DNA from: Acaryochloris thomasi RCC1774
GTDB taxonomy: Bacteria > Cyanobacteriota > Cyanobacteriia > Thermosynechococcales > Thermosynechococcaceae
DNA: 32,000 nt
Direction: 5' to 3'
Assembly (NCBI RefSeq): GCF_003231495.1
Contig: NZ_PQWO01000009.1
Location: 60,001 to 92,000, forward strand
Made by a program: the position numbers and the translations under genes. Below, one piece after another: positions 11,555-31,045 of the stretch; position 1 is the first letter of the stretch; every line of letters begins with the position of its first letter. The notes beneath the pieces were generated by a model that saw nothing but the letters and a program-made list of their open reading frames with translations, was not told the DNA's origin and made no database searches.

Positions 11555-12562
11555 ATGACTCTGTTTCTCTCTATCCCTGAATATTTGAGCCAGTATCCTG
11601 ACGCAGCGGAATTGCAGCAAGCTATTCGGCAGCCGTGGAGTATTCCTCTCAACGATGCTACGGGACGTAGTTATGGCTACCGTCAGGATGTCAACCTGCG
11701 ACCAGGGTTATCCGTCTTAATTGATGACTATACGCTCCAGGACGATTTGATTGTCGAATTGAGCAGTAGTCAAGGTTATGAACCTGCTCGACTGGGATTA
11801 GAGATGAGCTTTCTCCTCTCGGGTCATAACCGAGCTGAAGGGGTTCAAGTCCACCATAATTTTCTCGATGTCAGTTGGGATAGTTCAGATGGTGGACAGT
11901 TTGACTGGCAAGCTGGAGAACGGATCTTGAAGCTTGATATTCATATCGAACCTTATCTATTCGAGACCCTTGTGGGTGAACAGCTTGAGGCGCTCCCCTG
12001 CACCTTCTGTGAGCTAATGCGAAATCCGCAGTTCAGTCATAAAAAATTCAGGCAGGTTGCTCCGACGACGGCCACCATGCAAACGGCTCTTCATCAAATT
12101 TTGCATTGTCCTTACCAAGGCTTAACCCGCTGGCTCTTTTGGGAAAGCAAAGTCTTAGAGCTGATCGCGTTACGGCTAGATCAGATGAGCCAATCAAGCG
12201 CTCCATTGATGACCCCCAATTGGTCTACAGACGATGTGGATCGTATCCATTACGCTAGCAGTATTTTACTTAAACACTTGGTTGATCCGCCTTCTCTTGA
12301 GCAACTAGCGCAGCTAGCAGGACTCAATGATCGCAAGCTCAAAGAAGGCTTTCGGCAGGTGTTCGGTACAACTGTTTTTGGCTACTTAACCCAGTATCGG
12401 ATGGAAAAAGCCTGCCAGCTTCTTAGGCAGCAACAATCAGTGGCGGCGGTCGCGATAGCCGTTGGCTATGCTAGCCCCACAGCCTTTAGTGGCACGTTCC
12501 GGCGACGGTTTGGGATGTCCCCCAAAGGGTACCAGGTGGCAAAACGTAGAAGATATTCGTAA
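11555..12562 (+). CDS. AraC/XylS-family transcriptional regulator, PchR-like by genomic context (module 1)
   Basis: C-terminal double HTH: PPSLEQLAQLAGLNDRKLKEGFRQVFGTTVFGYLTQYRMEKACQLL...VGYASPTAFSGTFRRRFGMSPKGY. Lies directly upstream of a TonB-dependent receptor gene. Confidence 0.9.
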   Translation: MTLFLSIPEYLSQYPDAAELQQAIRQPWSIPLNDATGRSYGYRQDVNLRPGLSVLIDDYTLQDDLIVELSSSQGYEPARLGLEMSFLLSGHNRAEGVQVHHNFLDVSWDSSDGGQFDWQAGERILKLDIHIEPYLFETLVGEQLEALPCTFCELMRNPQFSHKKFRQVAPTTATMQTALHQILHCPYQGLTRWLFWESKVLELIALRLDQMSQSSAPLMTPNWSTDDVDRIHYASSILLKHLVDPPSLEQLAQLAGLNDRKLKEGFRQVFGTTVFGYLTQYRMEKACQLLRQQQSVAAVAIAVGYASPTAFSGTFRRRFGMSPKGYQVAKRRRYS

Positions 12563-12605
12563 ATAGTCCGTTTTAAAGAGAAAAATAGTCCGCTTCAAAG
12601 AGAAA
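12562..12605 (+). promoter_or_regulatory. Tandem 22-bp direct repeat (AATAGTCCGTTTTAAAGAGAAA / AATAGTCCGCTTCAAAGAGAAA); candidate AraC operator of receptor gene 1
   Basis: Read directly: 20 of 22 positions are identical and the two copies are exactly adjacent. The repeat starts within the araC stop codon and lies 88-131 nt upstream of the receptor ATG. The core GTCCG(T/C)TT-N5-AGAAA recurs at 29344-29382. Confidence 0.5.
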
Positions 12606-12634
12606 CACACGCTCCACGCCCCATAGAATTTAAT

Positions 12635-12655
12635 TGCAAATAATTCTTGTTTGCA
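12635..12655. promoter_or_regulatory. AT-rich inverted repeat TGCAAA-N9-TTTGCA; weak Fur-box-like candidate proximal to receptor gene 1
   Basis: Sequence TGCAAATAATTCTTGTTTGCA followed by TATTATC, 38-58 nt upstream of the ATG at 12693. Similarity to the Fur consensus is only partial. Confidence 0.3.
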
Positions 12656-12692
12656 TATTATCGGTGGATCTGATGGTTGAGTGGTGTGGGAA

Positions 12693-15299
12693 ATGATGGT
12701 TACCAAAACGGTACGACTTGGGCTGTTAGCGATAGGTTGGCTAGGGATGACACCTGTGGCTTGGGCCGAGCAGTCTAATGCAGAAAATTTAGGAAAGACC
12801 AAGCATTTAGCTAATCAGCCTGTAGAAGGACTTGTTGCTGCAGATCAGACCATTAAGACGGGAAAAAGCCTTTCTCAGCAACCCCCAGCTTCTACAGTCA
12901 AAGATTGGATAGCTCAAATTAAAGCATCACAAGTGCAAATTATCAGCGTCAATCTAGAACAAACTGAAGCCGGTTTACAGATGACGCTGGATACAACTGA
13001 CGGGACTTTAGAAACTCCAGCAACAACGGTATCGGAGAACACTCTAGTTGCTGAAATTCCGAATGCAGTTTTATCACTGCCGGAGGAAGAGACGTTTGAG
13101 CAAGTTAACCCAGTGCTGGGGATTGCTCTAGTGAGCGTGACGAGTTTACCGAATGATCAGGTGCGGGTGGCGATTACGGGCACAGACGCTCCGCCTACGG
13201 CTGAAATTACAGCCTCTGCATCGGGTTTAGCCTTTGCCGTTTTGCCAGGAACCGTCAGTACTGAAGGCACTGAAGAAGAGGAGCTTGAGATTACCGTTAC
13301 GGCAGAGCAGAGCGGATCTGAATATTTTGTGCCTGAAGCAGGTGTCACCCGCACTGATACTCCTATTCTCGATACCCCTGCCAGTGTGTTTGTGGTTCCG
13401 CGTCAGGTGTTTGAAGACCAGGGAATCACCAAGTTTTCTGATGCACTGAGAACGACACCCGGTGTATCACAAACGTCAGCGCCTAACGCTAACTTTAACA
13501 ATGTGAATATTCGAGGCTTTGATGTCTCTTCTCCCAGTTTGAGAAATGGCGTCCCTGAAGCCTTTTCGTTCTCTCTGCCCAGAGACTTGAGTAATGTAGA
13601 GCGACTGGAAGTTCTCTCTGGCCCTGCATCTATTGTTGGTGGTCAAATTTCTCCCGGTGGCATCATCAATATCGTCACGAAACAGCCTCTTTCATCCCCT
13701 TTCTATGAGCTATCGGCCAGCTATGGCAGTTTCAATACCTTTGACGGAGGGGTAGATCTTTCCGGTCCTCTCAACAGCGATCAGACATTGAGCTACCGTT
13801 TCAATGCTTCGTACCTGCATTCAGATACACGTGTTGATGTAGATAATGTTGATGTTGATCGTATCTCAATCGCACCTGTACTGAGATGGGATATCAGCGA
13901 CCAAACAAAGCTAACCTTTGAAGGACTGTACCTCAACTCAAAAACTCCTCAGCGAACTGGGTTACCTGCTGTTGGTACTGTTTTAGATAACCCCAACGGC
14001 GAAGTCCCGAGAGATCAGTTTGTGGGAGAACCTGATTTTGACGGTAATGATCGACAAATTATTCAAGTTGGCTATAACTTAGAGCATCAATTGAGCGATA
14101 ACTGGAAGCTGCACCATACATTTCGCTACAATAATTTTCAAATTGAGCAAAGAGAAGCCTTTGCCGATGCGCTACAGGATGACTTGCGAACGTTAGAGCG
14201 ATCTGTATTTTTCGGTCAAGATAATTTTAATAATTTTCAAGCAACTGCCTATATAACAGGTCAGTTTGAGACAGGACCTTTTACCCACAAGCTATCAACG
14301 GGTATTGATTATAGCTTTGAAGAAGACTTTTTTAATTTTACCTTTGGCTCTGTTGATGCTGGAAACATTGACATTTTTGAGCCAGTATTTACCGGTATTG
14401 AGGGGCCGATTCCTGTTGCTGAAATTCAAGGTAGAGATACAAATAGAGGGATAGGACTTTATCTTCAAGATCAGCTAAGCTTATTGGATGATCGCCTCAT
14501 CTTTGTGCTAGGTGGGCGAATTGATTTTATACGTTCTTCCACTGAGAGTTTTAGTGACGGCACCCCGGAAGAATCTCAAAGTGATACAGCTTTTAGCCCC
14601 AGAGTCGGAATTCTTTTCAAGCCCATTGAAAATGTTTCTCTATACGGCAGCTTTAGCCGCTCCTTTCAACAAGTCACGGGCATTAGTGCGACTGGCGAAC
14701 TATTTTCACCCTCTCGCGGAACTCAATACGAAGTTGGTGTCAAAGCGGACTGGCTCGATAAAAGACTCTCGACCACACTTGCTTTTTTCGACATCACTCA
14801 ATCGAATGTTCTGACAACCGATCCTAATAATCCTGCCTTTGAAATTCAAACAGGAGAGCAGCACAGTCGTGGAGTTGAGCTATCGGCCCAGGGAGAAATT
14901 CTACCCAATTGGAACGTGATTGCGTCCTATGCCTACACAGATGCAAAAGTGACGGAAGACAATAATATTCCCGTGGGCAATCGCTTTGCAAATGTGCCGG
15001 AGCACTCTGCTAGCCTATGGACGACTTACACCATACCTAGCGGTAGCTTGGCAGGATTGGGTTTTGGTCTAGGGCTATTCTATGTCGGAGAGCGGCAGGG
15101 AGATTTAGAGAATTCTTTTCAAATACCGAGCTATTTCAGAACCGATGCAGCTATTTACTATAAACGCGATAGATTCAAAATTGGGTTGAATGTGAAAAAT
15201 CTGTTTGACATTGACTATATAGAATCTAGTGACGACATTCTCAGAGTTAACGTCGCTGACCCCCTTACTGTCCAATTGTCAGTTTCTTATGAGTTTTAG
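12693..15299 (+). CDS. TonB-dependent siderophore receptor with an N-terminal AMIN-like extension (module 1)
   Basis: Signal peptide MMVTKTVRLGLLAIGWLGMTPVAWA, so ATG 12693 is preferred over the track's GTG 12681. An extension of about 120 aa is followed by the TonB-box-like ELEITVTAE and plug motifs TDTPILDTPASVFVVPRQV and RGF. A long beta-barrel ends ...LSVSYEF with a terminal Phe. Confidence 0.9.
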   Translation: MMVTKTVRLGLLAIGWLGMTPVAWAEQSNAENLGKTKHLANQPVEGLVAADQTIKTGKSLSQQPPASTVKDWIAQIKASQVQIISVNLEQTEAGLQMTLDTTDGTLETPATTVSENTLVAEIPNAVLSLPEEETFEQVNPVLGIALVSVTSLPNDQVRVAITGTDAPPTAEITASASGLAFAVLPGTVSTEGTEEEELEITVTAEQSGSEYFVPEAGVTRTDTPILDTPASVFVVPRQVFEDQGITKFSDALRTTPGVSQTSAPNANFNNVNIRGFDVSSPSLRNGVPEAFSFSLPRDLSNVERLEVLSGPASIVGGQISPGGIINIVTKQPLSSPFYELSASYGSFNTFDGGVDLSGPLNSDQTLSYRFNASYLHSDTRVDVDNVDVDRISIAPVLRWDISDQTKLTFEGLYLNSKTPQRTGLPAVGTVLDNPNGEVPRDQFVGEPDFDGNDRQIIQVGYNLEHQLSDNWKLHHTFRYNNFQIEQREAFADALQDDLRTLERSVFFGQDNFNNFQATAYITGQFETGPFTHKLSTGIDYSFEEDFFNFTFGSVDAGNIDIFEPVFTGIEGPIPVAEIQGRDTNRGIGLYLQDQLSLLDDRLIFVLGGRIDFIRSSTESFSDGTPEESQSDTAFSPRVGILFKPIENVSLYGSFSRSFQQVTGISATGELFSPSRGTQYEVGVKADWLDKRLSTTLAFFDITQSNVLTTDPNNPAFEIQTGEQHSRGVELSAQGEILPNWNVIASYAYTDAKVTEDNNIPVGNRFANVPEHSASLWTTYTIPSGSLAGLGFGLGLFYVGERQGDLENSFQIPSYFRTDAAIYYKRDRFKIGLNVKNLFDIDYIESSDDILRVNVADPLTVQLSVSYEF

Positions 15300-15368: not shown

Positions 15369-16445
15369 GTGAAAAAAATACAGTTAAAGAAAACAGTACT
15401 CTATGGAAAATCTACGATTAATTGGATTTCAATCCATTGCAATCGCAGTTTCCGAATGTTTCTCTTATTCGCAATGACCGCCTTGATCATCGCTTGTAAT
15501 CACGCCTCAAATCCGGCTGTCACTTCCCCCACTGATTGTCGAACGATTCAACATGCAATGGGAGAAAGCTGTGTTCCTACTACCCCCCAGCGCTTAGTGG
15601 CCCTGAGTTCGCCCACAATGGCAGATGCGATCGCACTAGGCGTACGGCCGATTGGTACAGTTTTACAAGACTTTGATTTTCAAAAAGCTCCGCCCTATCT
15701 AGAAGGACGACTACAGGGCATTGAAATTGTAGGCAAAGAAGAGCAGCCTGACCTAGAAAAAATTCTATCGCTTAAACCCGATCTTATTATTGGCCTGCAA
15801 TATGACTCTGAGCCAGTCTATGACAAACTCTCACAAATTTCTCCAACCGTTTTAGATGATTGGAAGGGCTACCCTTCTTGGAAAGAACACTTTGATTTTG
15901 TGGCTCAAGCTTTAGGTAAAACCGAAGCAGCCCAACAAATATGGTCGCAGTACGATCAACGTATTCAAGAGTTGAGAACAGCCCTTGGTCCAGCTTACTC
16001 GGATCTTGAAATCTCATTTGTGAGGGTCTGCTGCGGCAATTGGGCCACGGATGTCAAAAACTCTTTTAGCGGCATGATTCTTGAAGATGTCGGCCTAAGT
16101 CGTCCCCCTGCTCAGGATATTGAAGTTGAAAATGGACTTGTTTTTCTCTCTGAAGAGGCCCTCACTCAGTTTGATGGCGACATTATTTTTCTGGTTGTCG
16201 ATGCAGATCAAGATTCTGCAGATGCCTTAGAGCAGCTTAAGCAGAAACCCCTTTGGCACAAACTGAAAGCTGTACAGCAAGGGAAAGTCTATCCCGTCAA
16301 TCTTGCAACATGGCGGGGCGGAAATCCCTTAGCTGCTGATGCCGTAATCGATGACCTTTTCAAATATTTGGTAAAAGTTCCAGATTCACAAGGCTCGAAG
16401 TCAGATCACAAAAATACGATGGCCGAGAATGCTCCTACTCGATAA
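15369..16445 (+). CDS. FhuD-like (type-2 periplasmic binding protein) iron-siderophore ABC substrate-binding lipoprotein (module 1)
   Basis: Hydrophobic leader with lipobox MFLLFAMTALIIAC. Family pattern RLVALS...LGV.PIG...KPDLIIG...LWHKLKAVQQGKVYPV. The start is uncertain: GTG 15369 or ATG 15456. Confidence 0.85.
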   Translation: MKKIQLKKTVLYGKSTINWISIHCNRSFRMFLLFAMTALIIACNHASNPAVTSPTDCRTIQHAMGESCVPTTPQRLVALSSPTMADAIALGVRPIGTVLQDFDFQKAPPYLEGRLQGIEIVGKEEQPDLEKILSLKPDLIIGLQYDSEPVYDKLSQISPTVLDDWKGYPSWKEHFDFVAQALGKTEAAQQIWSQYDQRIQELRTALGPAYSDLEISFVRVCCGNWATDVKNSFSGMILEDVGLSRPPAQDIEVENGLVFLSEEALTQFDGDIIFLVVDADQDSADALEQLKQKPLWHKLKAVQQGKVYPVNLATWRGGNPLAADAVIDDLFKYLVKVPDSQGSKSDHKNTMAENAPTR

Positions 16446-16447
16446 AT

Positions 16448-17293
16448 CTACCGCTCCTCCAGCCAGCTCTGTAAATCTGCCAAACTCGTGAAATCTAGCA
16501 GTGCCTCACTCAAATCTTCAAGTTCAGGCAAAGAAAGAGAGGCAAGGTGCGATCGCATTTCTTCCGGCAGCATTTGTCCTAGGCGATAAGTCAACTGGCG
16601 CATCACCACAGATAAAATCCCCTCCTCTTTTCCCTCTGCCTTGGCCTCTCGAATAGCACGAGGTTCCTCTGTTAAATCTAGACCTAACATTGCCTTGACC
16701 TCCGCTCGACTCGCGTTCTTTAGTTTGTACACCATAATTGAAGTCACTATGTCTATTATGTCTCGTCTTTTCTCCAAAGTGAATCCCGCCTGCTCAGTAC
16801 GTGCGATCAGATCCCTCGCAGCTTCAGGCGCTTCATTCTCTTTCACAATCGTCAACACCATTGCCCCTACAGCAATCGGAAGAGAGTCGATCTCTCCCGC
16901 CTCATTCAGATATACGCGATGAACCTGGTTGCCATTGAGCAGCGATCGATGGGGATGAAGCTTACTCTGTTCAGCCGCGCGAGAAGGATAAATGATCACC
17001 GCCTGCCAATCTGAAAAACGAGCGCTGTTGCGGTAAAAGTACAGCGCCGATTCACTAAACAATCGCTCGTAGAGTTCTTCATCCTTTTGCATCTGGACTT
17101 CGCAGAAGAAAACGACACCTGGTTCATCTCCCTCTGGCGGCAGGAACACCCCGTCAATTTCGAACTTGGGTTCCTTGACGGCAACTGAATCGAATCGATA
17201 GCCAGCCGCATTATTCGGTCTTTCCCCCAGCAGATCGAACAGCAGCTCGGGCGATTGCTGAAACAGCTTGTAGAACAGAGGGTCACGCCGCAT
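16448..17293 (-). CDS. Rpn-family recombination-promoting nuclease / putative transposase-like protein (DUF2887-type N-domain plus DUF4351-type C-domain)
   Basis: The N-terminus MRRDPLFYKLFQQSPELLFDLLGERPNNAAGYRFDSVAVKEPKFEIDGVFLPP...VVFFCEVQMQKD matches my memory of the cyanobacterial DUF2887/Rpn-like pattern, with a D...E.Q nuclease-like core. The C-terminal helical half is paralogous to 29512-29952. Its stop is only 2 nt from the convergent stop of the binding-protein gene. Confidence 0.75.
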   Translation of the reverse strand: MRRDPLFYKLFQQSPELLFDLLGERPNNAAGYRFDSVAVKEPKFEIDGVFLPPEGDEPGVVFFCEVQMQKDEELYERLFSESALYFYRNSARFSDWQAVIIYPSRAAEQSKLHPHRSLLNGNQVHRVYLNEAGEIDSLPIAVGAMVLTIVKENEAPEAARDLIARTEQAGFTLEKRRDIIDIVTSIMVYKLKNASRAEVKAMLGLDLTEEPRAIREAKAEGKEEGILSVVMRQLTYRLGQMLPEEMRSHLASLSLPELEDLSEALLDFTSLADLQSWLEER

Positions 17294-17421: not shown

Positions 17422-18738
17422 GTGCATACCTTCACTCTAATTTGGCTGGGTCAACTGGTCTCTACCATTGGCAGCTATATGACCAGCTTTGCTCTAACGC
17501 TTTGGGCATGGCAGCTTACAGGCTCCGCAACGGCTCTGGCGCTAGTGGGATTCTTTTACGAGTTACCTCAGATTCCGGTTGCCCTCTTTGCGGGCATCAT
17601 TGTGGATCGCTTTAATCGCAAATATCTGATGATTTTGGGGGATGCAATTTCAGCCCTCTCTACCCTAATTCTGCTGCTGCTCCACTTAACCGGACAGCTC
17701 CACCTCTGGCATCTTTACCTGACTTCGGCTGCCATTGGCGGCTTCGGTCAAATTCAGCAGCTGGCCTATTCCACTTCCATAACGACACTGGTTCCGGTCC
17801 AGCACTATACCCGTGCCAACAGCATGAACTCTGTTGTGCATTATGGCTCTATTATTATTGCTCCGGCCGCAGCGGGCCTGCTCTACCCTGTCATTGGTTT
17901 AGCGGGGGTTTTGATGATTGATTTGGCGACCTTTGGCGTTGCGATCGCAACCCTGCTCCTCTCCCACATTCCTCAGCCCCCTCCAGAAAAAACAGGCTCT
18001 GCCAAGCAGACAGGAAAACTCTCTCGACTCTGGCAAGAAACCACATTTGGCATTCGTTATATCTGGCAGCATCCGCACCTACTGCGCTTGCTAATCATTA
18101 CAGCCTTGTTTTGGTTCTTCCATGATCTCGGCAGCGCCATTGATGACCCCATGATTCTTGCTCGTTCCGGCAGCAACGCTCAGGTTTTGGGTGCTATTGG
18201 AACGGCTGCAGGTATCGGGGGCGTCACAGGTGCGATCGTGTTGACTGCTTGGGGCGGCCCTAAACAGCGTATTCATGGACTACTCATTGGTTTTATGGGG
18301 GCAGGACTCGCCAAAACATTTTTTGGACTGGGCCAAAATCTCAAGGTCTGGGTGCCTGCTCAGTTTTTTTCATCCCTTAACTTTCCGCTGTTGGGTAGCT
18401 CAGAAACAGCAATCTGGATGGAGAGCACTACACCTGAGATTCAAGGTCGAGTGTTTGCCGCGAACTCACTGGTGTTGCAAGGAGTAAGCACAATCGCAAC
18501 CCTGATTGCCGGTCCTCTGGCTGAGCGTATTTTTGAACCTGCAGTGCATTCAAAAAAAGTGGCCTGGGTCGTTGAACCAATACTGGGAACTCAACTCGGT
18601 GCAGGCACTGCTCTACTTTATATCCTCACATCTTTGGCACTTGTGTTAGTTGGGGTGGGTGGATATTGCTTACCGCCTTTGTCTCAGGCAAACGATCCAG
18701 CACTGATTGACAGCCAGGAATCGCACGCAGATGAATAG
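17422..18738 (+). CDS. MFS transporter (EntS/MFS_3-like; possible siderophore exporter or importer) (module 1)
   Basis: 438 aa with about 12 TM segments. The N-terminus IWLGQLVSTIGSYMTSFALTLWAWQLTGSATALALVG...IVDRFNRKYLMILGD is paralogous to 24171-25454. GTG start. Confidence 0.85.
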   Translation: MHTFTLIWLGQLVSTIGSYMTSFALTLWAWQLTGSATALALVGFFYELPQIPVALFAGIIVDRFNRKYLMILGDAISALSTLILLLLHLTGQLHLWHLYLTSAAIGGFGQIQQLAYSTSITTLVPVQHYTRANSMNSVVHYGSIIIAPAAAGLLYPVIGLAGVLMIDLATFGVAIATLLLSHIPQPPPEKTGSAKQTGKLSRLWQETTFGIRYIWQHPHLLRLLIITALFWFFHDLGSAIDDPMILARSGSNAQVLGAIGTAAGIGGVTGAIVLTAWGGPKQRIHGLLIGFMGAGLAKTFFGLGQNLKVWVPAQFFSSLNFPLLGSSETAIWMESTTPEIQGRVFAANSLVLQGVSTIATLIAGPLAERIFEPAVHSKKVAWVVEPILGTQLGAGTALLYILTSLALVLVGVGGYCLPPLSQANDPALIDSQESHADE

Positions 18739-18769: not shown

Positions 18770-19687
18770 CTATCTCACTCCCTGTACATTAGTCTCTGCA
18801 AAAGATTGAGGATAGATAAGGGGCAGAAGCCGCTCTAACATTAACCCGATCAAACGAGTGCCGTTGCCCCAGTGCCAAAATGGCTCAATTTCATAGACCT
18901 GTTGAGTCTGCACAGCCTTAAGCTGCCTCCAGGTCGGATGCTGATGAAGCTGCTCAGAGAGCGGTTTATTTTTAGGACTAAAAGATTGCACAAAAATAAT
19001 ATCAGGATCAACCGTCAAAATTCGCTGCAGCGAGAGGTAGATCAGTCCAACTTCTCTGCGCTCAGGCTTTGGCTTTGACCAAGGGAAATTTGTAAATTGC
19101 TGCAGAACACTACCGACCGTCCCCGTATCCGTTTCTACGGGATAGCAGTTCAACCTGCGATTGATGGTTGCACCGCCCATGACTATTACAGTCGGTTGAG
19201 ATTGGTGCTGTAGCAGCCGTTGCATATCTCGAATCTGTTGGGTGAGGGTTGCGATCGCATCCTTCCCCTGTCTCTCTCGCCCCGTCCAACGACCGACCCG
19301 CTGCAGTCTAGCGACAGCGGCATCATAACCCGCTCCTTCCACCAGCAAGAGCGGCGCAATACGGTTGAGTTGCTTATAAAAACGGTGGGGGAAATGCCAG
19401 CCTAAAATCAAATCGGGATGGCTTTGGCGAATAGCTTTCCAGTTTGGAAAAATCCACGATCCGGCGTTCATGAATGATCGAGCGCGATCGCCGTAAAACT
19501 CCGGTCGGTCAGCGACGCCCTGATTAAGATAGCCCACTGGCTCTAGCCCCAGTTCAACCAAGCAATCAAGCCCGGTTGCCGTCAGGCAAACAATCCGTTG
19601 AGCAGGCTGATCTAACCGAATTTCAGCACTAAGGTCATTACTTTCCTGAATTGGAGTCGCTTTAAACGCACTCTTTCCCTTTGTCAT
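18770..19687 (-). CDS. FhuD/BtuF-like type-2 binding-protein fold without any signal peptide (predicted cytoplasmic)
   Basis: Family pattern RIVCLTATGLDCLVELGLEPVGY...HPDLILGW...DPDIIFV...WRQLKAVQTQQVYEI. The preferred start is ATG 19687, which overlaps the stop of the upstream methyltransferase frame as ATGA. Neither this start nor the longer track ORF (to 19783) encodes a hydrophobic leader. Confidence 0.75.
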   Translation of the reverse strand: MTKGKSAFKATPIQESNDLSAEIRLDQPAQRIVCLTATGLDCLVELGLEPVGYLNQGVADRPEFYGDRARSFMNAGSWIFPNWKAIRQSHPDLILGWHFPHRFYKQLNRIAPLLLVEGAGYDAAVARLQRVGRWTGRERQGKDAIATLTQQIRDMQRLLQHQSQPTVIVMGGATINRRLNCYPVETDTGTVGSVLQQFTNFPWSKPKPERREVGLIYLSLQRILTVDPDIIFVQSFSPKNKPLSEQLHQHPTWRQLKAVQTQQVYEIEPFWHWGNGTRLIGLMLERLLPLIYPQSFAETNVQGVR

Positions 19688-22337: not shown

Positions 22338-22450
22338 CTTGCTGGTGCGGTGCATTGATCAATATCGTCTGCATCATGCTGGCATCTTCGAAATGAGCTA
22401 CTGCGAGTAGGCCGGACACGCTTCTCTAGCGACTGAAGTTTTACTTATGA

Positions 22451-22486
22451 ATAGAGCCTTGACTGAGTTGAGGCTCTATTTTTGTT
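22451..22486 (+). terminator. Rho-independent terminator downstream of dps
   Basis: Perfect 9-bp stem ATAGAGCCT / AGGCTCTAT (10 bp with the flanking A-T pair), an 11-nt loop, then TTTTGTT. There is no T-run on the opposite strand, so it is unidirectional. Confidence 0.6.
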
Positions 22487-22956
22487 GGCTGATGTTGCTC
22501 ACGATTATAGCCTTATTGATATATACTTGCAATAGTGACAAGCTAAAGAAACTTAGGCTTCTGTTTTTCTTAGACGTCAAAGTCTTTATAGGTAAAGCTT
22601 TCGAGTCGTCTTAGTGATCATAATTTTGGTTTGATCATCATTGACCTGTGCAGATTATTGATATTTTAATTCAACAGATTTTTAATAAATCTATAACTAG
22701 AGCAGCAACAAGTATTTAGAGCCTTTGCCAGCAGAAGGTTTCGGGCACTAACATTGTCTCTTCCTTTTGCTTTATCAATTTCTATTGTTAGTAAGGTCTT
22801 GAGCTGCAGGTCAGTGACAGCGTCCTCAGAGTGCCTTTATCTCCGATGTGGATGCAATAGATATTGATGGTTTTGAGGAATATTTCGCCTTGACAGCATT
22901 CTAGATTGAGTTTTGACTTTTTTCCTTTGCTATTGCTCTCTCATTTGTAAGTATTT

Positions 22957-23787: not shown

Positions 23788-23838
23788 CCTCTAATCGCGC
23801 AGTCACTTGCCCGTCTCTTTGGAACCAAAGGAATCAAT

Positions 23839-24132
23839 ATGTATAAAGTTACCTTCATTAACGAAGAGCTAGATCTCAATCAAACCATTGAAGTTCCTGA
23901 TGATGAATACATTCTAGATGCAGCCGAAGATCAGGATATTGATCTGCCTTTCTCCTGTCGAGCCGGGGCTTGTTCAACCTGCGCTGGCAAAGTTCTATCG
24001 GGAGAGGTTGACCAAAAGGATCAATCTTTTCTTGATGATGGACAAACAGACGCAGGCTATGCGCTATTGTGTGTCGCCTATGCTCTTTCAGACTGCACTA
24101 TTGAAACCCACTCAGAAGAAGAACTTTTCTAG
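23839..24132 (+). CDS. Plant-type [2Fe-2S] ferredoxin
   Basis: 97 aa. Cluster motif [11 protein letters not shown]...LLC and the typical MYKVTFI...ETHSEEELF architecture. Confidence 0.95.
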
Positions 24133-24170: not shown

Positions 24171-25454
24171 TTAGCCATGGTCAGGCAAGGTTGTCTCTAC
24201 TGTTCTCAGCCGCCTCACACTGTACCCACCGATCGCAATCAACATTCCGCAGATGGCAAAGATCGAAATCTGTAGTGCCATACCTGCGCCTAATCCAGTG
24301 CCGAAGATTGGTCCAAAGAGTTGGGCTAACGGTCCTCCTGGCTGCATGGCGGGTTCAAAAAATTGGTCGGCGAGGGGACCTGCGATCGCAAACCCTACAG
24401 GACTACTCAACTGTGTCAGCAAAAATCGCGTGGCAAACACCCGTCCCTGCACCTCTGGCTCCACCTTAGACATCCAAATCGCTTGGTTGGCGCTTTCTGG
24501 GAACGGAGAACAGAAGCCTGAAAATAAAGCCGTACCAATCTTCGTTGCATTTCGCTGAGCCAAAGCCAGAATCACAATACCTAGTTTCCATAGGGCGCTA
24601 GCAATCAAGACACTATGAATCCGACGTTTGGCACCACCCCAGATACTCATGGTTACCCCGCCCAAGAGACCACCCATCCCAAAAAAAGCCAGCAGCGTTC
24701 CCCAAACGACAGGATTGTTGTCACTTCGAGCTAAAACCATCGCAGGCAGAATGGCAAAAGTAGCGCTATCAATAAAACTATTGAGGATCAAAAAGCTGAG
24801 AAGGGCCATCAGACTGGGCCGTCGCCAGAGATATTTCAGTCCAAAAGTCAGCGATGTTCTAAATGAGTTTTTTTCCTTTGCTAGGGGGATTGCTTGAGAC
24901 TGGGGAATGCTAACCAGTGCTAAGCTGCATATTGCGATCGCAAAGGTAGAAATATCAATGCAGAGAATACCCGTCAGACCTGTTGCTGCATAGATGGCTC
25001 CTGCCAAAGCTGGGGCCAAAATATAGGTGCCTGACATTTGAACAGAGCCGAGAGCTGTAGCGCGAGCGTAGTGCTGTTTAGGGACAATCAGCGTCAGAGA
25101 GGCAGCGTAAGCCAGTCCTTGGATATAGCCAAATAAGCCGTTAATCGCGCCGGTTATGTAGAGGTGCCACACCTGCAGATTCTGGGTTAAAAACAGGAGC
25201 AGTAGAGCGATCGTAGAGAGTCCGGCGATCAGGTCGCCCAGCAGCATTAGATACTTGCGCGGGTAGCGATCGACCCAGATGCCTGCAAAGGGTGAAACCA
25301 GCAGTCTGGGGACTTGGGTAAACACCAGAATTAGAGAGAGAGGCGTGGCTTGTCCAGTGATTTCCCAAGCCCAAAGCGTGATGGCAAAGTTGGTTAGCTC
25401 GGAGCCAAGTAGGGAGGCAAATTGACCGAGCCAGATAATTAGAAAAGTTCGCAA
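24171..25454 (-). CDS. MFS transporter (EntS/MFS_3-like), paralogue of 17422-18738 (module 2)
   Basis: 427 aa. IWLGQFASLLGSELTNFAITLWAWEITGQATPLSLI...WVDRYPRKYLMLLGD. TTG start at a position equivalent to the GTG start of the paralogue, and no in-frame ATG upstream before the stop. Confidence 0.85.
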   Translation of the reverse strand: MRTFLIIWLGQFASLLGSELTNFAITLWAWEITGQATPLSLILVFTQVPRLLVSPFAGIWVDRYPRKYLMLLGDLIAGLSTIALLLLFLTQNLQVWHLYITGAINGLFGYIQGLAYAASLTLIVPKQHYARATALGSVQMSGTYILAPALAGAIYAATGLTGILCIDISTFAIAICSLALVSIPQSQAIPLAKEKNSFRTSLTFGLKYLWRRPSLMALLSFLILNSFIDSATFAILPAMVLARSDNNPVVWGTLLAFFGMGGLLGGVTMSIWGGAKRRIHSVLIASALWKLGIVILALAQRNATKIGTALFSGFCSPFPESANQAIWMSKVEPEVQGRVFATRFLLTQLSSPVGFAIAGPLADQFFEPAMQPGGPLAQLFGPIFGTGLGAGMALQISIFAICGMLIAIGGYSVRRLRTVETTLPDHG

Positions 25455-25601: not shown

Positions 25602-26672
25602 CTACAGAGGGGATAGCATTTGTTGTTTCAGTTCTTCTAAATAAAGTTCGGTGCCGATGGGGCCGGGTAAGCCTAAACAAAGGTAAGCGGGGATGAAGTA
25701 GACGCGTCCGGTTTTGCTGGCTTTGAGAGATTGTGCGATCGCATTTTTCTGCCACATCTGCTTCAAATCTGTGATTTGGCTAGCTTCAAATTCTGTTGTA
25801 CTGCCGGTTGCTTTAGGCGGACTGAAGTTGCTGCCCAACAAAACCATAGAGTCAGCCTCATCCAACTGCGTCAACCCTTCCAGAGAGATCTGCACTCGTG
25901 CATCTTCTTTTTTGTTGTCAAATTCTGGTGGGGAGATTAATTGAAAGCCCAGCTTGCTAACTAGGGAACGACAAAGACCGTGACCAGAATTACCTAAATT
26001 TATTTCTCTAAGATCAGAGGAACTGAGCAAGAGCAGTTTAGGGTGGGTTGCCACTAAAGAGGCAAAACGCTCACGGGCTGTTGTCACACGCCGTTCTGTC
26101 TCCGTTAAAAGTTGTTCTGCTTGCTCAGAACGATCAACGGCTTCAGCAATGGTCTGCAAACTCTCTTCCGTCTCTGACCACTCGAGCAGCACCGTTGGGG
26201 CGACTTTCGATAAAGTCTCATACTGGTCAGTATTACCATCAACCGTGCCTAAAATAAGATCTGGCTTCGCTTTGAGCAAGGCTTCAATAGAGGGCGTGTA
26301 AGCCTGTCCCACATTCATGAGGGGCTGAGTAATGTAGCGTCCTAAGTAGGGAATTTGCTGCTCGGGATTGTCATAGGCTCCCTGATGCACCGTGATGTGG
26401 TCAGCGAAACCGATAGGCTGCACCTTGAGAGCTAATAGAGGTTCTAAGACATAGGGCCCCAGCACTACGATTCGTTGAGGCTGTCCGCATATTTTAGTTT
26501 CGCCTAATTCATGCTGGACGACACGGCAATCTGCAGATGATGCAGCATTGCGGGGGGTATCCTGCTCTGGGGTAGGTTGGCAGGCTGAGATTGAATGTCC
26601 CAGCAAAACCACAAAGATGAGCCATTTCGTTACTGCCAAAACTTTCACAGACCATTCCTTTCTGAGGGACAA
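25602..26672 (-). CDS. FhuD-like iron-siderophore ABC substrate-binding lipoprotein (module 2)
   Basis: Leader MSLRKEWSVKVLAVTKWLIFVVLLGHSISAC with a lipobox. Pattern RIVVLGPYVLEPLLALKVQPIGF...KPDLILG...TGRVYFIP. The start lies 6 nt after the receptor stop. Confidence 0.85.
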   Translation of the reverse strand: MSLRKEWSVKVLAVTKWLIFVVLLGHSISACQPTPEQDTPRNAASSADCRVVQHELGETKICGQPQRIVVLGPYVLEPLLALKVQPIGFADHITVHQGAYDNPEQQIPYLGRYITQPLMNVGQAYTPSIEALLKAKPDLILGTVDGNTDQYETLSKVAPTVLLEWSETEESLQTIAEAVDRSEQAEQLLTETERRVTTARERFASLVATHPKLLLLSSSDLREINLGNSGHGLCRSLVSKLGFQLISPPEFDNKKEDARVQISLEGLTQLDEADSMVLLGSNFSPPKATGSTTEFEASQITDLKQMWQKNAIAQSLKASKTGRVYFIPAYLCLGLPGPIGTELYLEELKQQMLSPL

Positions 26673-26678: not shown

Positions 26679-29240
26679 TTAAAAATTGACTGTGACTGAA
26701 CCAATGACCGTAAACGGTTCACCGACTTCTGAACCAAATGTACGACTGTTGTTGCTGCCGACAATGTAATCAACGTCAAAAATGTTTTTAAAGTTGAGGG
26801 CCAGTCGCCAGTTATCACGGCGATAAAACATCGCTGCATTGGCTAGGAAGTAGCTGTCTAGCTCGAAACTATTGGCGAGGTCACCTTCTCGTTCTCCTAA
26901 AAAGTTGAATCCAAGCCCAAACCCTAAGCCCTGTAGATCGCCCGATTGAATCTCATAGGTGCTCCACACACTGCCGCTGTGCTCAGGGATATTGACGAGG
27001 CGATTGCCTTCAGGAATCGTATTATCTGCAGAGACTTCTGCGTCAGTGTAGGCGTAGGAGGCGATCACGTTCCAGCCCGGTAGAATCTCACCTGTAACAT
27101 CAAGCTCGACACCTCGACTGTTTTGGGCACCCGTGGCAACGGATGAAAAGGGATCGAGGGGATCGGGGGTCGCCACATTTCTGCGGCTGATGTCGAAATA
27201 ACTCAAGGTGGCAAAGAGCCGTTCATTCAAAAGAGCCGCCTTTACACCCACCTCAAACCCTTCGCCCCGCTCTGGAGGGAGTAGCTCACCGCTGCTGGTG
27301 GTCTCCGTGTTGGGCGTGAAGGACTGGGAATAGCTGGCAAATAAGGACAGAAATTCGAGGGGCTGGTAAACGATGCCAAAACGCGGGGTCACAGCATCAT
27401 CATTTTGGTCCGCTTCAGAGCCAACGGGATCAGAAGCAGTCGGCCCATTCGTGATGTTCTGATCGACGGTGTCATAACGAACACCAGCGACCAAGATTAG
27501 GTTGTCCAATACCTTGATTTGATCCTGGAGAAAAAGGCCTAAGCGATTGGTTTGTACCTTTTCATTGAAGGAAATCGGTAGGCTGCCACTATCAATCGGT
27601 GCGAGACCAAAGACCGGGTTGAAAATGTCTAAGAAAGAGGGTGAGGCGAAGTCAAAGCGAGAAAGATTTTGCTCATCGGTTCGATTCAAATCAACTCCCA
27701 CCAATAGCTTATGGTCAATGGGACCAGTGGCAAACGCTCCGACCACGCTGGTTTGGAGAGAAAAATTGGTTGCGTCGATGTCTGCGCTTCCAGGGAACCG
27801 CATGACGAGACCTGTGGCTTCATCGAACGCGAGAGGCAGCACGGCCGTATTCAATAGATCTCGTCTTGAATATTCAAAAGCATTCCGTATCTCCCACCGA
27901 TCGTTAAACTGATGCTCAAAACTATAGCCCACCCGAAACAGGGTGCTGTTTACGAAGTTTTCGGGTTCAACAATGATGCTGCTAAAGGGAACATCGGCTA
28001 CGCCATTGCCGATGGCCGGCAAGCCAATATCAAAGGGTTGTGAATCAGTCGCATACTCAGCTTTTAGGGTGAGATTGGTGCGATCGCTAATTCGCCAGGA
28101 TAAGACAGGGGCAACGAGGAAGCGTTCAATGTCTACATCAGAGTCTATGAAGTCACTGTCGCGAGAGTAAGACACGTTGAGCCGATACAGTAAATCTTTT
28201 TTTGGGGTCAAGGGGCCGGTTAGATCGATTTGAGGCTGCACGAAGCCTCGGTTGCCCAACTCCAGACCGATCTCATAGGCCGGTTGATCCAGCGGCTGCT
28301 CCGTGACGATATTGATGATGCCTCCTGGCTGTAGCTCTCCATACAAAATGGAGGCCGGTCCCTTAAGCACTTCAACTCGTTCTACATTCCCAAGGGCTGG
28401 GTTGGCCCCTGTGAAGCCGCCAAATTCTCTGAATCCATCTCGCAGAGTGGGAGCATCAAACCCCCGAACGTTGAAGTCTATGCTGACCCCGCCAAAGGTA
28501 TCCCCAAAAGTGACACCACTCACGTTCCTGAGCGCTTCATCAATACGGGTGACCTGCTGATCTTCTAAGACCTGCTTCGGCACGACTTGAATGGATGTCG
28601 GTGTATCCAAAATAGGCGTATCGGTGCGCGTTGTAGGACTTACCTCCGGGACCGCGTAGCCCTCTGGGCCTCTCTCTGCAGTCACCGTGAGTTCTAATTC
28701 TTCCTCTTCTGAAGCAACTGGTGAAACTGCATCCACCGCAAACACCAATCCCGATATTTCACTCTGAATCGTGACTGTTGGGGGGCCTTCTATCCCCACA
28801 ATCTCAACCTGTACCTGATCTCCTGACAGAGGTATGACGCTAACCTGAGAGATACCTTCGACGGGATTATCTTGCTGATATTCTGGACCGCCCGGCAAAG
28901 CCAGCACTGCGTTGGGAATAATGGCCGTAAGTCGGTTCCCCTCAGTTGTAGCGGCGGGAATCGCTAGGTCATCCGCTGTAGTTTCTAGAACAATTGAGAG
29001 CCCCTGCTCCGTCGGGTTAATCTGTATGCCCGTCACCTGAATTTGCGTTGCTTCGATCTGGGCCAGCCATTCAGTGACGCTAGCGGCGGGCTGACGGTCT
29101 TCCGGCTCCAAAATTTCTAAAAGTTCAGCCAATTCGTCAGTTGTCGCAGGCTTCTCGGTGGCCAAAACCGATTGGGTTGCTCCCAAACCTGCCAGCGCGA
29201 TTGCCCACAGCGGCAAAAACTTGCCAAACCTTTGTTTCAT
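26679..29240 (-). CDS. TonB-dependent siderophore receptor with an N-terminal AMIN-like extension (module 2)
   Basis: Signal peptide MKQRFGKFLPLWAIALAGLGATQSVLA, an extension of about 120 aa, the TonB-box-like ELELTVTAE, the plug motif TDTPILDTPTSIQVVPKQV, and a barrel ending ...GSVTVNF. Confidence 0.9.
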   Translation of the reverse strand: MKQRFGKFLPLWAIALAGLGATQSVLATEKPATTDELAELLEILEPEDRQPAASVTEWLAQIEATQIQVTGIQINPTEQGLSIVLETTADDLAIPAATTEGNRLTAIIPNAVLALPGGPEYQQDNPVEGISQVSVIPLSGDQVQVEIVGIEGPPTVTIQSEISGLVFAVDAVSPVASEEEELELTVTAERGPEGYAVPEVSPTTRTDTPILDTPTSIQVVPKQVLEDQQVTRIDEALRNVSGVTFGDTFGGVSIDFNVRGFDAPTLRDGFREFGGFTGANPALGNVERVEVLKGPASILYGELQPGGIINIVTEQPLDQPAYEIGLELGNRGFVQPQIDLTGPLTPKKDLLYRLNVSYSRDSDFIDSDVDIERFLVAPVLSWRISDRTNLTLKAEYATDSQPFDIGLPAIGNGVADVPFSSIIVEPENFVNSTLFRVGYSFEHQFNDRWEIRNAFEYSRRDLLNTAVLPLAFDEATGLVMRFPGSADIDATNFSLQTSVVGAFATGPIDHKLLVGVDLNRTDEQNLSRFDFASPSFLDIFNPVFGLAPIDSGSLPISFNEKVQTNRLGLFLQDQIKVLDNLILVAGVRYDTVDQNITNGPTASDPVGSEADQNDDAVTPRFGIVYQPLEFLSLFASYSQSFTPNTETTSSGELLPPERGEGFEVGVKAALLNERLFATLSYFDISRRNVATPDPLDPFSSVATGAQNSRGVELDVTGEILPGWNVIASYAYTDAEVSADNTIPEGNRLVNIPEHSGSVWSTYEIQSGDLQGLGFGLGFNFLGEREGDLANSFELDSYFLANAAMFYRRDNWRLALNFKNIFDVDYIVGSNNSRTFGSEVGEPFTVIGSVTVNF

Positions 29241-29284
29241 TGCGTCTCACCCACACCACTTACAGCAGCTAGATTAAAACCTAG

Positions 29285-29302
29285 CTAATGAAAATTATTC
29301 TT
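29285..29302. promoter_or_regulatory. Fur-box-like sequence CTAATGAAAATTATTCTT proximal to receptor gene 2
   Basis: 13 of 18 positions match positions 2-19 of the classical Fur consensus GATAATGATAATCATTATC (hand alignment). It lies 45-62 nt upstream of the ATG at 29240, between the tandem repeat and the start codon. Confidence 0.35.
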
Positions 29303-29343
29303 ACTTGGTCAGTGAGAGCATCGTAGCGGGTGGTTGAGAGCAA

Positions 29344-29382
29344 AATCTTTGCGAAACCGACTTTTTTCTTCGCGAAACGGAC
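29344..29382 (-). promoter_or_regulatory. Tandem direct repeat on the minus strand (GTCCGTTTCGCGAAGAAA and GTCGGTTTCGCAAAGATT, 21-bp period); candidate AraC operator of receptor gene 2
   Basis: The plus-strand copies TCTTTGCGAAACCGAC (29346-29361) and TCTTCGCGAAACGGAC (29367-29382) are 14 of 16 identical. The repeat shares the core GTCCGTTT-N5-AGAAA with 12562-12605. It lies 104-142 nt upstream of the receptor ATG. Confidence 0.5.
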
Positions 29383-29511
29383 AAAGCGTTGCGACAGTCG
29401 AAGACCGACCTATATCTTTCTGACAGGCTAAGTCCTTCGGACGATCTAAAGGTACGCCAACGGCCATCGCATCAGGTCATTGGGCAACCTTGTATAAAAC
29501 TTGTACCTGGT

Positions 29512-29952
29512 TCATTCCTGCGTTGCGAGCCAATTATGTATATCGTTCAAATGATTGAAATCTAACAGAGCTTCTCCTAATGCCGTCAGTTGTGCAGACG
29601 ATAAGGTGGAGATGCGATCGCACATTGATTCATCTAATGTGCCCATTTTTTTTGTAAGCAGGTGCAGGATCAGCGATCGTTCCCCCTCTTCCTTGGCTTC
29701 CTGAATAGCACGTGGCTCCTGCGTCAAGTCAAGTCCTAACATGGCTCTAATCTCCGACCGGCTTAAACTAGCAAACTTATATACCATTATAGAGGTCACG
29801 ATATCGATCAAGTTTGCGCGTTCTGTCGTTGTGAACGCCTCTTGCTCAGTGTGCTCTAGCAACCATCTCGCAGCGGCTGGCGCTTCATCTTTTTCAAGGA
29901 TCGTCAACACCGTAGCAGCAACAGGAAGAGGCAGCGATATTACATCACCCAA
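29512..29952 (-). pseudogene. N-terminally truncated Rpn-like paralogue retaining only the C-terminal (DUF4351-type) half; remnant or stand-alone small protein
   Basis: The product aligns to residues about 135-281 of 16448-17293, for example IDIVTSIMVYK, AMLGLDLT.EPRAI.EAK and EALLDF..L.D...WL. It has a TTG start and similarity fades within about 11 codons upstream, at a TGA at 29986-29988. Only 79 nt separate it from the araC stop, so the nuclease domain is absent. Confidence 0.55.
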
Positions 29953-30031
29953 TGGTAAAAAATTAGGTCGCGCCGCATCCAGTTTTCACGTCATAAACTG
30001 GAGCGAGTGTACTGCAAAATGACGCCTCTCC

Positions 30032-31045
30032 CTAGGCTCGCTGACCCAGTTGATATGCCTTTGGGCTAACCGCAAACTGTCGTCGGAAGGCAGTGCTAAA
30101 CGCTTCTGGGCTTCGATAGCCTACTGTGGCCGCAACCTTGGCAATAGTGAGTTCAGAGTTGTGCAGTAGTGATTGGGCCTGCTGCATTCGATGCTGTTGC
30201 AGATAGCCAAACACCGTGGTGCCAAACAGTTGCCGGAAACCCTGATTGAGCTTGCGATCGTTGAGACCCACCTGACGAGCCAGATCGATCAAAGTGGGGG
30301 GCTGTTTTGCTCGCTGGATCAAGATCTCCTTTGCCTGATGGAGCTGTTCAACATCCTGACTACACAAAAACATCGGAGTTGCATAAGGTTGTTCGTCTTG
30401 CCAGACGGAAAATTGGGTAGTGAGTAATTCCAACGCCTTACTTTCTAAGTAGAGCTGCTGCATTAACCCTGTATAGGGACAGTGTAGGATTTGCCGAATC
30501 TGTTGCTGTATAGATCGAGAGATTTGTCCCAGTGATTGATGAAATCGCTGAGTTCTGTCCCCCTCTAGTAGATGTTGTAAGGGTGCGGGCAGTCCTTTTA
30601 TTCCCAGGTTGAAGGTACCAAAGTAGCTTGGATCTACGACAATCATGAGCACATGGATGGACTGATCGGCGGGCCATTCTTCAATTTCTGTGTGGCTGGG
30701 GAGATGATAGAGGTAGTGGCAGTCCGAGACTTCCCGATAGTCACGACTGATATCTAGGGCATCCGGCGTTTGCACTCGAGATGTCCCTGACAAATAGAAC
30801 TTAGCGACCAACGGGAAATTAGATTCATGTTCGATAACGTGGCGAATCGTCTGCCTGAGTCTACCCTGACGGATATATATTTCAAGTCCCTGACGGAGCT
30901 GGAGGATGCGATCTCCGCCTTGCCCTAGCTGTTCCGGCAAATTGTGCTGAAAACCAGAATCTATGGGCTGATGAACTTGTTCACCCCGATGCTTGGCTTG
31001 TTCATACAAATCCTGAAAATCGGCATTGGTCAGCGTGATCGCCAT
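30032..31045 (-). CDS. AraC/XylS-family transcriptional regulator, PchR-like by context (module 2)
   Basis: C-terminal double HTH PPTLIDLARQVGLNDRKLNQGFRQLFGTTVFGYLQQHRMQQAQSLL...VGYRSPEAFSTAFRRQFAVSPKAY. Shares QILHCPY.GL and ESK.LEL with the module-1 regulator. Confidence 0.9.
   Translation of the reverse strand: MAITLTNADFQDLYEQAKHRGEQVHQPIDSGFQHNLPEQLGQGGDRILQLRQGLEIYIRQGRLRQTIRHVIEHESNFPLVAKFYLSGTSRVQTPDALDISRDYREVSDCHYLYHLPSHTEIEEWPADQSIHVLMIVVDPSYFGTFNLGIKGLPAPLQHLLEGDRTQRFHQSLGQISRSIQQQIRQILHCPYTGLMQQLYLESKALELLTTQFSVWQDEQPYATPMFLCSQDVEQLHQAKEILIQRAKQPPTLIDLARQVGLNDRKLNQGFRQLFGTTVFGYLQQHRMQQAQSLLHNSELTIAKVAATVGYRSPEAFSTAFRRQFAVSPKAYQLGQRA

Follow-up and report, generated by a model that had tools for sequence, protein, structure and literature searches.

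A probable iron island with two anciently diverged siderophore transport cassettes in Acaryochloris thomasi RCC1774

The 32,000-nt stretch of the Acaryochloris thomasi RCC1774 genome analysed here, referred to as the window, appears to form part of an iron island that carries two independent and anciently diverged cyanobacterial siderophore transport cassettes. Each cassette, or module, encodes an AraC-type regulator, a TonB-dependent transporter (TBDT) acting as siderophore receptor, a siderophore-binding lipoprotein (substrate-binding protein, SBP) and a permease of the major facilitator superfamily (MFS), and the two modules lie on opposite strands (Table 1). Together with the mechanism set out below, we give this reading a probability of about 0.6.

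In the proposed mechanism, the AraC protein of each module would bind a module-specific tandem repeat that precedes the receptor gene, and would activate the receptor and SBP genes, possibly together with the MFS gene. Activation would probably take place under iron limitation and may be tuned by a small effector accommodated in the N-terminal beta-sandwich of the regulator. The receptor and the lipoprotein would set the specificity for a ferric siderophore, the receptors being FhuA/FoxA-like by family similarity, and both modules would pass their ligand to a single neighbouring importer of the ATP-binding cassette (ABC) type, composed of FecCD permeases and an ATPase. The MFS protein would most likely move siderophore outward, either by secreting the cell's own product or by ejecting deferrated siderophore for re-use.

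The eight module genes had been proposed by an earlier sequence-only reading of this DNA, and the open reading frame (ORF) list and the translations agree with the coordinates it gave. The four pairs that it regarded as homologous are confirmed by BLASTP, with identities of 28-45% that are far above chance: 34% for the AraC proteins (E 2e-52), 45% for the receptors (E 0), 28% for the SBPs (E 2e-26) and 44% for the MFS proteins (E 7e-104). All shared motifs that it quoted are found in the translations. Pfam assigns HTH_18/HTH_AraC domains to the regulators, AMIN (E-values of 1.3e-8 and 2.3e-8), Plug and TonB barrel domains to the receptors, Peripla_BP_2 to the SBPs and MFS_1/MFS_3 to the permeases, and TBDT1 scores 433.7 bits against the NCBIfam model TIGR01783, over its cutoff of 223.5. 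Receptor and SBP genes are separated by 69 bp in module 1 and by 6 bp in module 2. The gene order, previously described as identical, is the same for the four cassette genes, but ORFs of the DUF2887/DUF4351 type lie at different places in the two modules.

The cassettes were placed in context by comparison with related loci. Using the MFS pair as query and keeping one genome per species, 161 relatives were obtained; their record titles are essentially all cyanobacterial, apart from a small number of metagenome bins that carry only the label 'uncultured bacterium' or an assignment to another phylum. Seventy-nine loci were taken for comparison, and the window proteins were mapped onto them to score gene order. 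Twenty-three complete cassettes were extracted from these loci and, with the two from the window, make a set of 25. Of the loci named below, L001 is a 2.9-kb contig from a metagenome-assembled genome (MAG) and the closest relative found, L002 and L003 are Acaryochloris MAGs, L055 is from Egbenema, L080 is the Nostoc chromosome AP018216.1 and L084 is the iron island on plasmid pREB1 of A. marina.

The four-gene arrangement recurs in these loci. Of the 51 MFS genes for which 6.5 kb or more of preceding sequence is available, 23 show the exact same-strand order SBP<TBDT<AraC ahead of them, an SBP gene lies directly upstream of the MFS gene in 51 of 66 cases, and a FecCD-FecCD-ATPase set often adjoins the cassette. 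In all four families, nearer relatives occur in other genomes than the partner copy in the window, which ranks only 6th to 24th among the neighbours. As had been supposed, the pairs are thus deep paralogues and no product of a recent duplication; they do not group as sister families, an outcome that the earlier reading had named as refuting, but which counts against duplication in place only and leaves the functional reading untouched. Module 1 has its orthologues in the two Acaryochloris MAGs, with identities of 65-66% for AraC, 53-74% for the TBDT (TBDT1 being 74% identical to its orthologue in L003), 58-68% for the SBP and 65-68% for the MFS protein, and the nearest relative of module 2 is the Egbenema locus, at 53%, 48%, 50% and 45%, respectively. 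The distance matrices of the four families are weakly correlated (Mantel r 0.10-0.31), and nearest neighbours agree across genes in 4-11 of 25 cases, which means that the parts of the cassettes either were reshuffled or differ strongly in their rates of evolution.

New in this analysis is a predicted operator repeat particular to each cassette. Both AraC genes lie immediately 5' of the TBDT gene in the same orientation, as they do in the 23 other cassettes. The araC stop codon is followed directly by a tandem direct repeat with a period of 21-22 bp, which precedes the receptor ORF by 100-155 bp. The repeat is significant against shuffled sequences (p<=0.01) in 16 of the 25 cassettes. In module 1 it matches at 16 of 18 positions at a period of 22 (p=0.005 against shuffles); the box occurs once in the window, where 0.08 matches are expected, and it is kept in the orthologous locus L002. 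The repeat of module 2 matches at 14 of 18 positions at a period of 21 (p=0.005), with no other copy pair in the window. The two boxes differ from each other, neither pattern being found in the other promoter within 3 mismatches. Across 17 cassettes, similarity between repeats follows similarity between the helix-turn-helix (HTH) domains of the AraC proteins (Spearman 0.64, Mantel p=0.0005) more strongly than similarity of any other part, namely the AraC N-terminal domain (0.34), the TBDT (0.32), the MFS protein (0.25) or the SBP (0.22). Because the repeats covary with the DNA-binding domain, they are probably the operators of each module's AraC protein. Direct repeats spaced by two helical turns are the usual geometry of AraC/XylS operators.

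The regulators themselves differ most where an effector might bind, with 55% identity in the HTH domain and 24% in the N-terminal domain. An AlphaFold2 model of AraC1 (pLDDT 90.7) contains an N-terminal beta-sandwich, and ToxT, Rns and CsvR, all effector-binding AraC regulators, rank first among its full-length fold matches, suggesting a ToxT/Rns-like architecture of the effector domain; by sequence, matches to solved structures are confined to the HTH domain. AraC1 is 100% identical to P0142, which carries the existing NCBI name 'Regulatory protein PchR [A. thomasi RCC1774]'. Closer to the receptor genes, an AT-rich palindrome, TGCAAA-N9-TTTGCA (12635-12655), overlaps the promoter-like site of module 1; it might act as a Fur box, and it is not significant against the E. 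coli consensus. The Fur-box-like site of module 2 matches that consensus at 14 of 19 positions (p=0.007 locally) and is the sole intergenic site of its kind in the window. Promoter and terminator scans of the window gave counts equal to the shuffled expectation.

The transport genes of both modules resemble the cyanochelin B cassette cctA-cctB-cctC(-cctD-cctEF) on plasmid 2 of Leptolyngbya sp. NIES-3755, in which CctA is an AMIN-TBDT, CctB an SBP, CctC an MFS protein, CctD a Suc_Fer-like ferredoxin and CctEF a FecCD pair (bioRxiv 10.64898/2026.07.30.741596). AMIN-TBDTs are restricted to cyanobacteria, and CctA with CctB suffices for specific uptake in Synechocystis, where the host FecCDE acts in trans (bioRxiv 10.64898/2026.07.30.741596). 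The order AMIN-TBDT > Peripla_BP_2 SBP > MFS with 12 transmembrane (TM) segments is common to both systems, and the receptor architecture is of the same class. CctC is 53% identical to MFS2 (E 7e-153) and 45% identical to MFS1 (9e-108), CctB is 35% identical to SBP1, and CctA is about 22-30% identical to the window receptors. At this distance from CctA, and with FhuA/FoxA-like receptors in the window, the ligands are predicted to differ from cyanochelin. Further differences are that the cct cassette has no AraC gene and adjoins a biosynthetic cluster, whereas each window module has its own AraC gene and the window contains no such cluster; nor does the window encode a Suc_Fer-like CctD (by tblastn) or a DevBCA-like pump, having a plant-type ferredoxin instead. 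With operator-like repeats of their own and the Cct precedent for specificity residing in TBDT and SBP while permease and ATPase act in trans, the earlier idea of two uptake units, each under its own regulation and specific for its own ligand but served by a single FecCDE, is reasonable and in line with what has been proposed in the literature.

The receptor genes are accompanied by a further conserved element. A G-rich block, GTGGYGTGGG or more generally GGTGTGRG, stands 5-20 nt before the receptor start in about 15 of the 25 cassettes, including positions 12681-12692 and 29259-29250 of the window and equivalents in L002, L003, L055 and others. Its role might be that of an atypical ribosome-binding region or of a regulatory RNA target. 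Because it immediately precedes the ATG at 12693, that start, as called earlier, is likelier for TBDT1 than one at 12681.

The shared importer is well supported by Pfam, with FecCD matches of 3.5e-94 and 4.5e-96 plus ABC_tran, and FecC and FecD are 61% identical to CctE and CctF. The sequence-only reading had assigned three binding proteins to this one ABC set. A single FecCD/FecCD/ATPase set is indeed present, but the third protein, encoded in the core between the modules, may not fit the assignment: a signal peptide or lipobox is found in 74 of 80 related SBPs and in SBP1 and SBP2, and this protein has none. It may be an SBP-fold protein of the cytoplasm that does not work with the ABC importer. 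No orthologue of it occurs in the 79 related loci, and its likely ATG overlaps the stop codon of the methyltransferase gene (ATGA 19684-19687).

For both MFS proteins, the nearest NCBIfam models are DHA3 (TIGR00900), Mef, EntS, TetV and Tap, all of them efflux types, and JGI labels their relatives 'DHA3 family, macrolide efflux protein'. Scores against the EntS model (56 and 83 bits) fall short of its cutoff of 324, and those against Pfam MFS_3 (59 and 72.5 bits) exceed its cutoff of 27; a search by sequence for solved structures related to MFS1 returned none at E<=0.001. Among 57 receptor>SBP units scored in related islands, an MFS gene comes next in 41 and is missing from 16, and in islands with several units it usually accompanies one of them only. 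Taken together, the efflux-type models, the MFS-free units and the import result for the Cct system favour an outward pump over the FptX-like importer that had been envisaged earlier, in keeping with the homology to CctC and with NCBIfam matches that include no importer-type family. Such a pump most likely has a fairly generic substrate range.

In a neighbour-joining tree, MFS1 falls into a large clade (57-77% identity) whose members occur almost solely in AraC-TBDT-SBP-MFS cassettes that have no biosynthesis genes. MFS2 clusters with lineages of deeper origin, CctC-like and Nostocales genes among them, and its neighbours mostly adjoin genes for fatty acyl-AMP ligases (FAAL) or polyketide synthases and nonribosomal peptide synthetases (PKS-NRPS), thioesterases and PvdQ-like acylases. 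Across cassettes, MFS proteins share 60% identity on average, and AraC, TBDT and SBP share 34-38%, a contrast inflated by the choice of loci through their MFS genes. That an exporter-type MFS protein is kept and strongly conserved in cassettes without nearby biosynthesis genes is what this comparison adds.

Members of the same MFS family also occur in other contexts. In the Nostoc chromosome (L080 1-15451), the gene follows a receptor gene without SBP or AraC, and its neighbours encode a FAAL/acyl carrier protein, an ABC exporter with cNMP-binding and C39-peptidase domains, and an HlyD-type protein. The orthologue in PCC 7120 is BAB74372.1, which by gi arithmetic is probably All2673, beside the TBDT All2674, and presumably not Anabaena SchE (All4025). 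Genes for a FetA/FetB-type iron-export ABC system (UPF0014 and ATPase) lie directly 3' of the MFS gene in L043, L047, L048 and pREB1 (L084 16721-18177), and nearby in L038 and L059. Two types of small protein, Cys-rich and thioredoxin-like, recur within the cassettes: a DUF1636 protein is encoded in the SBP-MFS gap of six loci (L007, L010, L020, L031, L044, L072), always just upstream of the MFS gene, and Suc_Fer-like proteins of the CctD type occur in eight (L014, L029, L032, L035, L042, L047, L059, L067) and in pREB1 (L084 10103-11200). Both are candidate components of a ferric-siderophore reductase.

Comparable islands are known from other organisms. In Synechocystis, the proteins formerly called 'PchR' were renamed IutR1-3 (Sll1205, Sll1408, Slr1489); their genes precede TBDT genes, the proteins bind TBDT promoters, and low-iron induction depends on them (Liu et al. 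2024). Regulator-TBDT-FecB modules and a methyltransferase, Sll1407, were described in the Synechocystis island (Riediger et al. 2021), and differing siderophore specificity of its paralogues has already been proposed in the literature. Compared by gene layout, the window shares with Synechocystis PCC 6803 the order AraC > TBDT > FecB-type protein, the presence of several paralogous modules on one FecCDE, and a methyltransferase gene, of LCM type in the window core. The two differ in that a tandem-repeat operator is unmentioned in the text of the IutR paper, and in that IutR1 is described there as a global regulator whereas each box is unique within the window. An MFS gene as a regular fourth member is undescribed for Synechocystis. 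The gene sll1204 may encode an MFS protein, although literature searches gave no annotation for it.

The island on pREB1 of A. marina MBIC11017 is organized as ExbBD-FecCDE-AraC-(Suc_Fer)-TBDT-SBP-MFS, its MFS protein being 66% identical to MFS1 and its TBDT 50% identical to TBDT2. In contrast to the window, its cassettes are not convergent, and it contains ExbBD, FetAB, FeoABC and a Suc_Fer-like gene, all absent from the window. The PchR/FptA/FptX system of Pseudomonas aeruginosa, with which the modules had been compared, is similar in having an AraC activator beside the receptor gene and an operator of direct repeats, which in the window is a predicted one. The analogy holds for the regulator, which (as AraC1) bears the PchR name in public records and corresponds by gene layout to Synechocystis IutR/PchR, but not for FptX, as the window MFS proteins are DHA3/EntS-like by family models and not of the FptX/RhtX type. 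The window further differs in its SBP-dependent ABC route, its AMIN-domain receptors and its lack of biosynthesis genes.

Several observations weigh against our reading. Transport direction is not readable from an MFS sequence, and both proteins score below the TIGR00900 cutoff (169 and 206 bits against 319.6). The Nostocales arrangement of receptor and MFS genes without an SBP, beside a separate ABC/HlyD exporter, would also fit import. CctC, a putative exporter, was omitted from the construct used for import, and its export role is only proposed (bioRxiv 10.64898/2026.07.30.741596). The antisense ORF between SBP1 and MFS1 makes co-transcription of these two genes uncertain. The selection of loci by MFS similarity biases the comparison of conservation. 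On the regulatory side, IutR proteins act at low iron without added siderophore (Liu et al. 2024), and the E. coli Fur consensus is unenriched upstream of receptors and across the window. Finally, the AraC N-terminal domain covaries weakly with receptor and SBP (r=0.10-0.15, with low power at such divergences), so that a ligand match between the AraC sensor and the transporter is only a possibility.

The main alternatives concern what the modules carry and in which direction. The two modules could be xenosiderophore sense-and-import circuits like PchR/FptA/FptX, with the MFS protein as a single-subunit importer beside or replacing the ABC route. As had been noted from the sequence, the window is free of biosynthesis genes, with no NRPS/PKS or IucA/IucC matches, and most cassettes of the MFS1 clade also lack biosynthesis genes nearby, so that a dedicated exporter of the cell's own product is not obviously needed there; the Nostocales genes described above and the resemblance of the predicted tandem-repeat operator to PchR-box logic point the same way. 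We nevertheless consider such circuits quite improbable, given MFS proteins that match DHA3/Mef/EntS efflux models and no importer family, their homology to CctC in a system whose import runs without an MFS protein, the inner-membrane route already supplied by SBP and FecCDE, the 16 of 57 scored units that have no MFS gene, and the homologues of synthesis genes reported elsewhere in the strain (PMC8949462). These homologues, which are cupriachelin-like and 48-68% identical (PMC8949462), would instead suit modules that serve one or more siderophores of the strain's own, made by a cluster elsewhere or past the window, with secretion by the MFS protein, re-import by receptor and SBP, and product-dependent positive feedback through AraC, like that of PchR. 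MFS2 is the window MFS closest to CctC, whose gene adjoins the cyanochelin cluster, its tree neighbours mostly stand beside biosynthesis genes, and the right edge of the window lies only about 1 kb past AraC2. Yet neither the 11.5 kb left of module 1 nor the rest of the window holds a siderophore biosynthesis gene, the MFS clade of module 1 is almost always without such genes, two receptors that are 45% identical and have different predicted operators are unlikely to serve one product, and FhuA/FoxA-like receptors are distant from CctA. Service to the strain's own siderophores alone is thus an unlikely account of both modules.

The layout of the locus invites another explanation, inverted duplication of one cassette around a pre-existing core, which would account for the same gene order on opposite strands. 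The depth of the paralogy contradicts it, as do the lack of any inverted repeat in the DNA, apart from 45 nt within the MFS genes that match at 73%, and the great difference between the predicted operators and between the AraC N-terminal domains, and we attach almost no probability to it. It is also at odds with L001 (798-2850), where the stop codons of two convergent genes, one MFS1-like (77%) and one MFS2-like (83%), are 86 bp apart and no core intervenes; DNA identity to the window there is 75-78% and ends at the gene ends. The convergent pairing is therefore older than the core, or the core has been lost in L001. Related islands contain tandem, divergent or single cassettes, and apart from HIP1-like GCGATCGC motifs the core has no flanking repeats that would identify it as a mobile insertion. 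The mirror-image layout about a 5.4-kb core, to which the earlier reading drew attention, thus looks incidental, since the two MFS genes of this close relative stand 86 bp apart, and the head-to-head arrangement and the core look like accidents of island assembly. An island holding two independent, long-diverged transport cassettes remains our preferred reading of the locus.

Table 1. Features of the window by position. Module genes were assigned from ORFs and Pfam; operators and other non-coding sites are predictions.
Feature	Part	Coordinates	Strand	Remarks
ABC importer operon	Importer	7048-11328	-	
ATPase	Importer	7048-7893	-	
Ferritin-like gene	Importer	7943-8377	-	inside ABC operon
GDT1-family cation transporter	Importer	8585-9193	-	inside ABC operon
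FecD	Importer	9261-10301	-	
FecC	Importer	10303-11328	-	
AraC1	Module 1	11555-12562	+	AraC/XylS family; Pfam HTH_18 5e-23; N-terminal beta-sandwich effector-type domain, C-terminal double HTH
Predicted operator	Module 1	12563-12606	+	two tandem 22-bp units ATAGTCCGTTTTAAAGAGAAAA / ATAGTCCGCTTCAAAGAGAAAC
Promoter-like site TTGCAA-16-TATTAT	Module 1	12634-12661	+	upstream of TBDT1; consensus match only
TBDT1	Module 1	12693-15299	+	AMIN-plug-barrel siderophore receptor, FhuA/FoxA-like; TonB box EEEELEITVTA
SBP1	Module 1	15369-16445	+	siderophore-binding lipoprotein; Peripla_BP_2 1.1e-20; lipobox LIIAC
DUF2887/DUF4351 ORF	Module 1	16448-17293	-	antisense in SBP1-MFS1 gap; Pfam DUF2887 6e-71; outside transport function
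MFS1	Module 1	17422-18738	+	12-TM, CctC family, DHA3/EntS-like; 100% identical to C1752_03446
Core region	Core	18770-24132		iron-related cargo between convergent modules
SBP-fold protein	Core	18770-19687 (or to 19783)	-	Peripla_BP_2; no signal with either possible start
LCM-type O-methyltransferase	Core	19684-20577	-	in-frame TGA at 20155-20157, between EG and DRNTV; two same-frame ORFs
Two unknown ORFs	Core	20612-21585	-	
DpsA	Core	21810-22337	+	cyanobacterial DpsA model, 311 bits
YwiC-like membrane protein	Core	22957-23787	+	
Plant-type 2Fe-2S ferredoxin	Core	23839-24132	+	97 aa; Fer2 1.6e-23; converges on MFS2
MFS2	Module 2	24171-25454	-	CctC-type MFS
SBP2	Module 2	25602-26672	-	siderophore-binding lipoprotein; Peripla_BP_2 9.8e-24; lipobox SISAC
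TBDT2	Module 2	26679-29240	-	AMIN-plug-barrel siderophore receptor; TonB box EEEELELTVTA
Fur-box-like AT-rich site	Module 2	29284-29302	-	weak evidence; between operator and TBDT2 start
Predicted operator	Module 2	29343-29384	-	two tandem 21-bp units TTGTCCGTTTCGCGAAGAAAA / AAGTCGGTTTCGCAAAGATTT
DUF2887/DUF4351 ORF, truncated	Module 2	29512-29952	-	AraC2-TBDT2 gap; 52% identical to full copy
AraC2	Module 2	30032-31045	-	AraC/XylS family, paralogue of AraC1

The core DpsA and its counterpart in the pREB1 iron island of A. marina share 89% identity. The ferredoxin, which the earlier reading does not mention, could, by analogy with thioredoxin-like ferredoxins elsewhere, be the electron donor for ferric-siderophore reduction. 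The in-frame TGA of the methyltransferase gene could represent a nonsense mutation, a sequencing error or read-through.

Other genes of the window lie beside the transport system. An ORF of the DUF2887/DUF4351 (Rpn-like nuclease) type stands antisense between SBP and MFS in four separate cassettes, with a mutual identity of about 34%; the window shares this position with L018 (9030-9899), L029 (9093-9473) and L055 (9032-9904). The ferritin-like gene of the ABC operon is found in the same place in L020 and L053 (85-87% identity). Just left of this operon, two overlapping ORFs with DUF4096 and DDE domains encode an IS4/IS5-family transposase (6035-6888, plus strand); either a programmed frameshift, as is usual, or decay of the copy would explain the split. 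ExbB/ExbD, acylase, thioesterase, Suc_Fer, DUF1636 and FetB homologues are absent from the window, as are Rfam families and tRNAs in scans of it.

The locus is ordinary in kind: multi-cassette iron islands of this type are known from Synechocystis and A. marina, and the transport core is known from cyanochelin. Its value is that of a clean comparative case, in which two old paralogous cassettes combine distinct predicted operators with divergent regulator N-termini, and it offers a direct test of whether IutR/PchR paralogues are orthogonal, ligand-specific switches. The retention of the MFS gene without biosynthesis genes and its higher conservation across the 79 loci suggest a generic role, with siderophore recycling as one candidate, on which earlier authors have only speculated. 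We tentatively suggest, while holding the odds to be against it, that the CctC-family MFS protein ejects deferrated foreign siderophores in biosynthesis-free cassettes, each of which would then be an import-strip-eject cycle with a private operator. If so, siderophore recycling would be a built-in and widespread part of cyanobacterial siderophore piracy, and the 21-22 bp tandem repeats would form a code that pairs IutR/PchR paralogues with their receptors.

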